Shown here piece by piece: positions 13,860-14,054 of a stretch of 64,000 bases of DNA. The translations under genes were made by a program, and so were the position numbers. The notes beneath the pieces are model-generated. The model was not told the origin of the DNA, made no database searches, and saw nothing but the letters and a program-made list of their open reading frames with translations. Each line of letters opens with the position of its first letter. The stretch's first letter is position 1. Origin of the DNA: an uncultured Clostridium sp. (GTDB taxonomy: Bacteria > Bacillota > Clostridia > TANB77 > CAG-508); the NCBI GenBank assembly GCA_902492105.1, contig CABUKD010000003.1:1890-65889 (forward strand), given 5' to 3'.

Positions 13860-13913
13860 TTGAAAACCATTGAAACACTAAGAGAGAGAGAGAGAGAGAG
13901 AGCTAACATTTAA
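13860..13913 (+). CDS. Leader mini-ORF (TTG start) containing the (AG)11 tract: (M)KTIETLRERERERANI*
   Basis: GAGGA lies 5 nt upstream of the TTG. It is the positional and sequence homologue of the ATG-initiated mini-ORF at 43489-43548. Confidence 0.3.
   Translation: MKTIETLRERERERANI
13881..13902 (+). repeat. (AG)11 dinucleotide microsatellite
   Basis: Direct count gives 22 nt of AG repeats, encoding (Arg-Glu)n within the mini-ORF. Confidence 0.95.
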
Positions 13914-13981
13914 ACCAAGAACTAAAGAAAATTTAGTTTTATTTGTTGTACCAAAATTATATATAGAATATCAAAATTTAA

Positions 13982-14018
13982 AAAATGAATTATGCAAGAA
14001 AAATGCATAATTCATTTT
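13982..14018 (+). terminator. 15-bp perfect hairpin plus T-run, immediately upstream of the paralog promoter
   Basis: AAAATGAATTATGCA, a 7-nt loop, TGCATAATTCATTTT, then CTTTTTCTTT. Confidence 0.6.
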
Positions 14019-14025
14019 CTTTTTC

Positions 14026-14054
14026 TTTACATAGAAATAAAAGAATAGTATAAT
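14026..14054 (+). promoter_or_regulatory. Near-consensus sigma-A promoter of the pilin-like surface protein gene A
   Basis: TTTACA, a 17-nt spacer, then TATAAT. The same architecture occurs at 43662-43690. Confidence 0.6.

Follow-up and report, generated by a model that had tools for sequence, protein, structure and literature searches.

An (AG)n repeat in the leaders of pilin-like genes from uncultured gut Clostridia: a candidate slipped-strand switch acting on a putative terminator hairpin

The window analysed in this study is a stretch of 64,000 nucleotides from an uncultured Clostridium sp. (contig CABUKD010000003.1, positions 1,890 to 65,889), and its subject is a tract of eleven AG units, (AG)11, found at window positions 13881–13902 (locus A) within a short leader open reading frame (ORF) upstream of a gene coding for a pilin-like surface protein. 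The window is ordinary bacterial chromosome (28.7% G+C), with genes for a penicillin-binding protein (PBP), SMC and thymidine phosphorylase. The source organism is known from gut metagenomes only, and its nearest species representatives are metagenome-assembled genomes (MAGs) of uncultured Clostridia, at ~76% protein identity. An AG run of 16 nt was never seen in dinucleotide-preserving shuffles of the window (0.00 expected), against two loci observed.

All features of locus A lie on the plus strand. A Shine-Dalgarno (SD) sequence, GAGGA (13850–13854), is separated by 5 nt from a TTG start codon (13860–13862), and the same AAGAGGAT..(G/T)TG arrangement is found in the relatives L130, L132, L137 and L150. 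In its present phase the leader mini-ORF reads (M/L)KTIETLRERERERANI and ends with the TAA at 13911–13913, as had been described in the initial annotation of this DNA, and the sequence confirms it. When the tract was edited in silico, the same stop was reached with n = 8, 11 or 14 (n being the number of AG units), and with n = 10 or 13 a single codon was followed by a stop (AGC TAA, 13904–13906); these phases are referred to as OFF. With n = 9, 12 or 15 (ON), the frame stays open for another 35 codons plus TAA (13903–14010, an extension in which both OFF-phase stops fall), giving ORFs of 48, 50 or 52 aa that end in ...LTFKPRTKENLVLFVVPKLYIEYQNLKNELCKKNA. The ON-phase stop (14008–14010) is within the 3' arm (14004–14018) of a 15-bp RNA hairpin (13982–14018), which together with its T-rich tail (14019–14029) forms a putative intrinsic terminator or attenuator. 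The tail is overlapped by a promoter-like site, TTTACA-17-TATAAT (14026–14054, 11/12 matches, referred to as P2), whose −35 hexamer lies 124 bp downstream of the tract. The edits thereby reproduced what had been claimed for n = 10 and for n = 12, 9 or 15, and the consensus scan returned both the hairpin and the promoter which had been placed directly behind it. The pilin-like surface-protein gene A (14331–16616, 761 aa, with a GITLIALVV.. N-terminus (..NKQGITLIALVVTIVVLLILAG..) and a Big_2 domain) starts 429 nt past the tract with its own SD sequence and start codon, and the tract is thus outside the structural frame.

A second (AG)11 leader with an identical tract and the same frame logic, which the initial annotation had missed, is found in the window upstream of the pilin-like gene B. 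Leader B is 83% identical to leader A and is also on the plus strand. Its mini-ORF starts with ATG (43489), 7 nt after an AAGGAG SD sequence (43476–43481), and in the OFF phase (n = 11) reads MNQQKLETVRERERERVNF before its stop (43489–43548). The tract (43516–43537) is followed by an ON-phase extension of 38 codons plus TAA (LISKPTTKKNLVLFVVSKWYIKYRNIRDGLYYQKYNSS, 43538–43654, in silico edit), which stops 2 nt beyond the stem of a 15-bp hairpin (43617–43652) with a AAATTTTTCT tail reaching to 43662, returned by the terminator consensus scan and backed by covariation. P2 of this locus is TTTACA-17-TATAAT (43662–43690). Upstream, the P1 promoter TTGATA-17-TGcTATGAT (43420–43448) matches in position the TTGAAA-17-TGnTATAAT of most paralogs; the tract starts ~67 nt after the end of its −10 hexamer and is predicted to be transcribed from it. 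Gene B (43928–46861) codes for a surface protein of 977 aa with fn3 domains according to the domain search, and its start, with its own SD sequence and start codon, is 391 nt past the tract, which is here too outside the structural frame.

Both proteins carry a Gly and then ITLIALVVTIVVLLILAG at the N-terminus, with Ala, not Glu, at position +5. No Pfam or NCBIfam pilin-domain match was found for either of them (E ≤ 0.01), and a weak GspG match, below its cut-off, was obtained for gene C alone. Beyond the N-terminus, sequence searches of Pfam, NCBIfam and the PDB matched proteins A and B to immunoglobulin-like (Ig-like) or FN3 domains only, so that the label "pilin-like", as read from these matches, covers the N-terminus of A and B only.

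Orthologous tracts were taken from contigs encoding the exact flanking proteins, which for locus A gave 13 independent short-read assemblies including the window. Among assemblies with 100% identity over 880 nt upstream and 1098 nt downstream, four have n = 11 and two have n = 10; where the upstream flank differs by 3–4%, six assemblies have n = 9 or AA(AG)8 and one has n = 6, all of them ON. A fourteenth, long-read assembly (L161) has (AG)9-A-(AG)2 and was left out of the count. Among locus B orthologs, n = 11 was found six times, along with 12, 10 and 15 and with interrupted tracts of 14, 18 and 24 nt (n = 7, 9, 10, 11, 12 and 15 in all), and across 41 paralogous leaders n ranges from 3 to 21. 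Because the lengths vary at locus A, at locus B and among the paralogs, including 10 versus 11 between identical flanks, the AG repeat is hypermutable in nature. The slipped-strand switch put forward in the initial annotation is supported by this natural variation at loci A and B, and the invariance that would have spoken against it was not found (orthologs of locus A have n = 6, 9, 10 and 11). The phases are unevenly represented: among 29 paralogous leaders, 19 have n = 2 mod 3, five are ON and five have n = 1 mod 3, the modal length being n = 11 (14/29). Such a bias may come from selection for silence at one step from ON, or from an equilibrium of mutations.

Two further observations were made on these assemblies. 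Several (L162, L163 and L164) are interrupted at the tract or up to ~170 nt before it, with L162 ending inside the AG run; this is compatible with assemblers being confused by a multi-copy leader, by tract heterogeneity or by both. The strain groups (L165–L170 and L173, compared with window positions 13000–15000) differ by 3–4% in the 880 nt upstream of the tract and are 100% identical in the leader and the first 1.1 kb downstream, which suggests a recent recombination or sweep of the leader-plus-gene module.

The leaders belong to a family. Pattern scans with one genome per species detected 41 distinct leaders in MAGs of related uncultured gut Clostridia, ~20 of which are in one human-gut MAG (HGM13671); others come from human, Hadza, mouse and rabbit MAGs. 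Wherever enough sequence is available downstream, the leader precedes a pilin-like gene starting with the ..ITLIALVVTIVVLLILAG.. motif. Since an SD-linked start codon is present in all leaders with upstream sequence, and the strong promoter TTGAAA-17-TGnTATAAT lies at a fixed distance upstream in most, the leaders look translated. Three layouts can be distinguished. In type I (L139, L142 and L157), the tract belongs to the leader peptide of the pilin gene itself, which is ON in silico only at n = 0 mod 3: L157 edited to n = 15 or 18 gives 680 aa, and to n = 16 or 17 it gives 26–27 aa. In type II (L001, L008 and L152), a strong P1 is followed by the mini-ORF, the hairpin and, 40–100 nt further on, the SD/ATG of the pilin gene. 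Because no promoter-like site was found between the hairpin and this SD/ATG, the type II paralogs must, as far as their sequence tells, be transcribed through the hairpin. Type III, which comprises both window loci and most paralogs, is type II with an added TTTACA-17-TATAAT at a fixed +121 to +125 past the tract and a longer 5' untranslated region (UTR). Both window loci thus differ from the layout with a single upstream promoter, which L001, L008 and L152 fit.

A profile search with the extension peptide retrieved, from public assemblies, 134 clusters of ON-phase ORFs of 45–84 aa with a shared consensus (L.FKPTTKENLVLFVV.KLYIKY.N.KDGL..), in which the runs of RE correspond to n = 3, 6, 9, 12 and 15. 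One of them (P0056) is the locus A ortholog caught in the ON phase, and alleles locked ON with (AG)3, such as P0037 and P0072, keep the full extension. A 19-mer leader scan of metagenomes returned, among the matches listed, mostly unrelated AT-rich sequences, with L053 as the one relevant match. L053 and L158 share a leader-plus-P2 module of 470 nt (98.9% identical) before different pilin-like genes, and strain L176 has a UPF0236 transposase-like gene in place of gene B at locus B; leader modules appear to be shuffled among genes. In some metagenome homologs (P0069/P0070 and P0108/P0113/P0114) other repeats replace the AG tract or stand beside it, with HTHTHT implying (AC)n and YIYIYI implying (TA)n, and their counts differ between clusters.

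To compare the frames and the hairpin, 25 type II/III copies were aligned. The bases giving the OFF-frame stops, T2A3 and T9A10A11 past the tract, are invariant, so that both OFF frames end 1–4 codons after the tract (stops at +4 and +11), ~68 nt short of the hairpin, which starts at +80. The position of the ON-frame stop, on the other hand, varies among copies (+105, +108, +117, +132, +141, +147 and +150) while being within or past the 3' arm of the hairpin in 23/26 of them. The three exceptions are a stop in the loop, a nonsense mutant and a locked-OFF allele with a collapsed tract. The initial annotation regarded an open frame of 35 codons as unexpected in itself. This part of the claim is only partly borne out, as such a frame has a chance of ~3.5% from base composition alone; it is the comparison between copies which is significant. 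When the observed substitution columns were permuted among columns with the same consensus base, 12.4 copies were expected to have a premature ON-frame stop, compared to 1/25 observed (P~0.001; binomial check, 0.0018), and the frame is open in the orthologs and in 24/25 paralogs; the closed extension in orthologs which, according to the initial annotation, would speak against the switch was thus not found either. There being far fewer premature stops than the permutation predicts, the ON frame is under selection to stay open. Substitutions in the extension are evenly spread over the codon positions (32/33/31), and 25% of them are synonymous compared to 20% expected at random. These two features indicate that the peptide is unconstrained: what is kept is the translatability of the frame and not the encoded peptide, which is the signature of a regulatory leader ORF.

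It could be argued that the ON product of ~50 aa is itself functional, as a phase-variable regulator, surface or secreted peptide, and that the hairpin is merely the terminator of its gene. The ORF does have its own SD sequence and, mostly, its own promoter, and the 134 clusters have a recognisable consensus. We nevertheless find this very improbable, considering the near-random substitution pattern just described and the C-terminal ends, which vary freely among copies (NSS, KKNA, ..FFFT and ..LHRNK before the stop). The ON-phase clusters have no precomputed Pfam domain and no source name beyond "hypothetical protein", and the presence of ~20 near-identical copies per genome, each with a different pilin-like gene, argues for an action in cis.

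Two side observations concern this region. L158, the one copy with a nonsense codon in the ON frame, was considered as a possible dead locus. This was ruled out, since the pilin-like gene behind it is intact and has Ala where Gly would precede ITLIALVV. The motif TTTAARCCA just past the tract (13909–13917 and 43544–43552) has been conserved in all lineages in spite of differences in reading frame (F-K-P for the window type, L-S for type I); supplying the TAA stop of one OFF frame explains only part of this conservation.

The hairpin is maintained across the 25 copies, with 98.7% of cells paired. Compensatory changes were found for four pairs, there are two pairs in which A-U and G·U replace each other, and G·U pairing is common. 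As G·U pairs work only in the RNA of the plus strand, and as the pairs covary, the hairpin is a real plus-strand RNA structure. Both window hairpins pass the terminator consensus scan, and the tail exists in variants such as TCTTTTT and AAAATTTTG. In other lineages (C017_56, the rabbit MAGs and L141) the sequence following the tract is unrelated and a hairpin is again found inside a single long frame, the other two frames stopping upstream of it. Because these hairpins are not homologous, the design recurs independently. In the minimum-energy fold the AG tract pairs with the U/C-rich terminator tail; this pairing was judged incidental, as the C positions of the tail are not conserved.

The same region could be read in terms of polarity, with untranslated RNA being exposed to Rho or RNases in the OFF phases, and the hairpin being an element for stability or processing and not a termination site. 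The OFF stop would leave from 70 nt to >400 nt untranslated before the pilin start, and in about half of the copies the T-run is 2–4 nt away from the stem. The RNA is however A-rich and C-poor (12.5% C on the plus strand of the window), and such RNA is a poor substrate for Rho loading. Polarity also leaves unexplained why nearly all copies have an ON frame ending in the hairpin or after it, and why unrelated hairpins lie within a long frame in other lineages, and is for us a very unlikely explanation.

Another possibility is that the leader is a decaying relic, namely the stranded 5' stub of an ancestral gene which had the AG tract in its prepilin leader peptide, with P2 now driving genes A and B constitutively and the tract slipping without controlling anything. 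L139, L142 and L157 still carry the tract inside the pilin gene, and a weak codon-by-codon alignment can be made between the extension (..KENLVLFVVPK..) and the hydrophobic segment of the pilin. The near-consensus P2, the degenerate P1 and TTG start of locus A and the lack of amino-acid constraint on the extension would all be expected of a relic. The maintenance of the system speaks against it: the OFF-frame stops are invariant, an SD sequence and a start codon are kept in every copy, compensatory changes maintain the hairpin, and the locked-ON (AG)3 alleles P0037 and P0072 retain the full extension. Moreover, the avoidance of stops holds when only the copies carrying P2 are considered (1 premature stop compared to 7.9 expected, P=0.006). 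Decay is therefore judged unlikely.

Finally, the length of the polypurine/polypyrimidine tract could act at the level of the DNA, through H-DNA or by altering how an upstream site is spaced or phased with respect to P2, with no role for translation. Upstream-repeat switches of other bacteria act in this way, the tract is 124 bp upstream of the P2 −35 hexamer, and n = 11 is strikingly over-represented (14/29 paralogs). At the window loci, the tract is not within a promoter spacer or an upstream promoter element. It is instead in a translated frame with a conserved SD sequence and start codon and with stops in both OFF frames; selection keeps exactly one frame open, relatives have the same tract within coding sequence, and ON alleles are found at n = 3, 6, 9, 12 and 15, which is a matter of phase and not of length. 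An effect at the DNA level is thus highly improbable.

The best-supported explanation, which we consider probable, is that (AG)n is a slipped-strand switch in a translated leader ORF gating an RNA terminator hairpin, both termination and its relief by translation being deduced from the arrangement and conservation described above. According to this model, replication slippage would change n by single units. In the phases n = 1 or 2 mod 3, to which the present n = 11 belongs, the ribosome would halt 1–4 codons past the tract, ~68 nt before the hairpin, which would then form, and most transcripts from the upstream promoter would end at the U-rich tail. With n = 0 mod 3, the leader ORF would extend by 35–38 codons and end in or just past the 3' arm, so that the translating ribosome would block the stem and transcription would proceed into the pilin-like gene. 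With a separate switch for each of the ~20 or more genes per genome, the population would be a stochastic mix of surface-protein repertoires. The system is most likely a random on/off (or low/high) switch of surface genes, of a kind that has so far been shown experimentally in S. gallolyticus only.

The initial annotation had already proposed that the ribosome invades the terminator. The placement of the ON stop, the avoidance of stops without constraint on the peptide, the covariation of the hairpin, the paralogs lacking a second promoter and the precedent in S. gallolyticus all lend it indirect support, while at locus A it is weakened by the degenerate upstream promoter, the TTG start and the near-consensus promoter after the hairpin. 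Several properties of the system indeed weigh against the proposed switch. The stem is AT-rich, with three G-C pairs, and the T-run is separated from it by 2–4 A in about half of the copies, so that the terminator is not always canonical. A near-consensus P2, conserved among paralogs, follows the hairpin at both window loci and could drive the pilin-like gene at any phase of the tract. P1 of locus A is degenerate in both −35 and −10 and its leader starts with TTG; copy B is cleaner, and A is the weak copy. Transcription and translation are loosely coupled in some Firmicutes, which would make antitermination by the ribosome less efficient unless the RNA polymerase pauses. Most assemblies are in an OFF state, with n = 11 as the mode, which fits a switch without proving one. 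With P2 behind the hairpin and a degenerate promoter in front of the leader, it is uncertain how strongly the switch affects gene A, and at loci bearing P2, such as A and B, their promoter layout makes low versus high expression likelier than off versus on. A bolder version of the model is a genome-wide combinatorial coat of 20+ adhesin-like genes with their own (AG)n attenuators, in which the switch at A and B would choose between read-through from P1 (with a long leader) and the P2 transcript, or in which read-through would interfere with P2, making the response graded or inverted. We put this forward tentatively, as a possibility that is rather unlikely. If true, such a dual-promoter logic would be undescribed for any repeat switch.

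The proposed mechanism has a counterpart in the pil1 and pil3 loci of Streptococcus gallolyticus, where a leader peptide is made shorter or longer by GCAGA repeats (Danne et al. 2014, PMC3894217). Expression is low with the short peptides, which end at least 28–39 nt before the terminator, and high with the long ones, which end within or after it; the mechanism was shown genetically, and the ribosome is proposed to destabilise the terminator (PMC3894217). Both systems have a tandem repeat in a short translated leader ORF upstream of surface-appendage genes, with a stem-loop (here a putative terminator) between the leader and the structural gene. In both, short phases stop well before the hairpin (28–39 nt there, ~68 nt here), long phases stop within or downstream of it, and the number of repeats differs between isolates. 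There is however no sequence homology between them, and their origin would therefore be independent. Furthermore, the repeat is a dinucleotide here and a pentanucleotide in S. gallolyticus, with just one of the three phases being long; the genes code for large proteins with a pilin-type N-terminus as opposed to sortase-assembled pili; and ~20 or more loci per genome are found, known from sequence alone, compared to two. Many of these loci, including both in the window, also have the extra P2 after the terminator, unlike those of S. gallolyticus.

Other known systems share parts of the design. The hopZ and oipA genes of H. pylori are the classical case of a dinucleotide switch in the signal peptide (PMC12915409). 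These surface-protein genes are switched by frameshift in a CT repeat at their 5' end (AG when read on the opposite strand), which is the exact layout of the type I relatives (L139, L142 and L157), with the tract in the prepilin leader peptide. At the window loci, in contrast, the mini-ORF holding the tract stands apart from the pilin-like gene, which comes after a hairpin and uses an SD sequence and start codon of its own. The window loci differ in the same way from the Neisseria opa type, where the repeat is within the structural frame. In the attenuation of pyrBI, the leader ORF runs through the attenuator. The trp operon of E. coli is controlled by ribosome-mediated transcription attenuation, in which translation of the leader peptide decides on the terminator (PMC3894217). 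The AG leaders would resemble both in that the position of the ribosome translating the leader decides whether the terminator hairpin forms. They would differ in responding to a heritable, stochastic change in repeat length and not to a physiological, reversible signal (charged tRNA, UTP), and no alternative antiterminator hairpin was found at the AG leaders. In Mollicutes, repeats switch genes individually, as with the poly-A promoter spacer of the M. hyorhinis vlp genes and the GAA repeats of M. gallisepticum vlhA. These families are similar to the present one in having many surface paralogs with their own hypermutable 5' repeat, in a small AT-rich genome of a host-associated organism, and in their combinatorial variation; their repeats act on the promoter (spacer or upstream site) and not, as proposed here, on leader translation and a terminator. 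By analogy, the system would be of a known kind, of which it is a dinucleotide version without homology, used throughout a multigene family.

The surroundings of the two leaders hold further features. The closest paralogs of locus A (L130, L132, L137 and L150) carry an upstream promoter, TTGAAA-17-TATACT, which is disrupted at locus A (13803–13859). A conserved ORF of 47 aa (13671–13814), which comes after an XRE-type helix-turn-helix (HTH) gene (13220–13549), reaches into this region with its 3' end. Further upstream, the coding sequence of an amidohydrolase is divided between two ORFs which overlap and are in different frames (11788–12723 and 12696–13106); the split is found in all independent assemblies of the locus, and the frameshift is therefore real (pseudogene or programmed) and not a sequencing error. 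A conserved element of ~115 nt occurs three times, in the 5' UTRs of genes A (14109–14223, plus strand) and B (~43735–43850) and at 52048–52162, this third copy being upstream of an unrelated Exo_endo_phos gene (52311–53048). Within it, CATAAGC..GCTTGTG forms a small hairpin, one pair of which is compensatory in copy B, and the element has no match in Rfam; the 5' UTR after P2 has no significant fold (z = −0.35). No Rfam family was found at gathering scores across the whole window, and the one match near the leader is to a small RNA at chance level (E=1), so the leader and UTR appear to correspond to no known riboswitch or leader RNA. A third pilin-like gene (21378–22106, minus strand) has no AG leader and has a TTGACA-17-TATAAC site of its own; it is followed by a gene for a PARCEL-repeat surface protein built of 78-nt repeats (20595–21326, minus strand). 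Tandem, partly palindromic intergenic repeats of 34 bp (..CAGCCAAAAGGGACGTTCCTTTTTGG..) are found at several gene ends (20327–20405, 22669–22724, 37278–37435 and 38585–38677) and look like REP-type or terminator-type elements. A synteny search covering 80 other species found no AG leader in the regions flanking their thymidine phosphorylase gene.

In the literature, no description was found of this leader family or of a dinucleotide version of the leader-peptide/terminator mechanism. The leaders would represent a second, independently evolved case of phase variation by leader peptide and terminator. For annotators, uncalled mini-ORFs and contig breaks are to be expected at such leaders. The three layouts would form an evolutionary series, from a repeat in the signal peptide, to a separate leader ORF with a hairpin, to the addition of a promoter, which makes the origin of an attenuator testable. 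As tract length can be read from metagenomes, it could mark the expression state of each gene and help to study how immune or phage pressure acts on commensals of the gut. The mechanism, known from one streptococcus, would then extend to a prevalent lineage of uncultured human-gut Clostridia, on the scale of a family with ~20 loci per genome.

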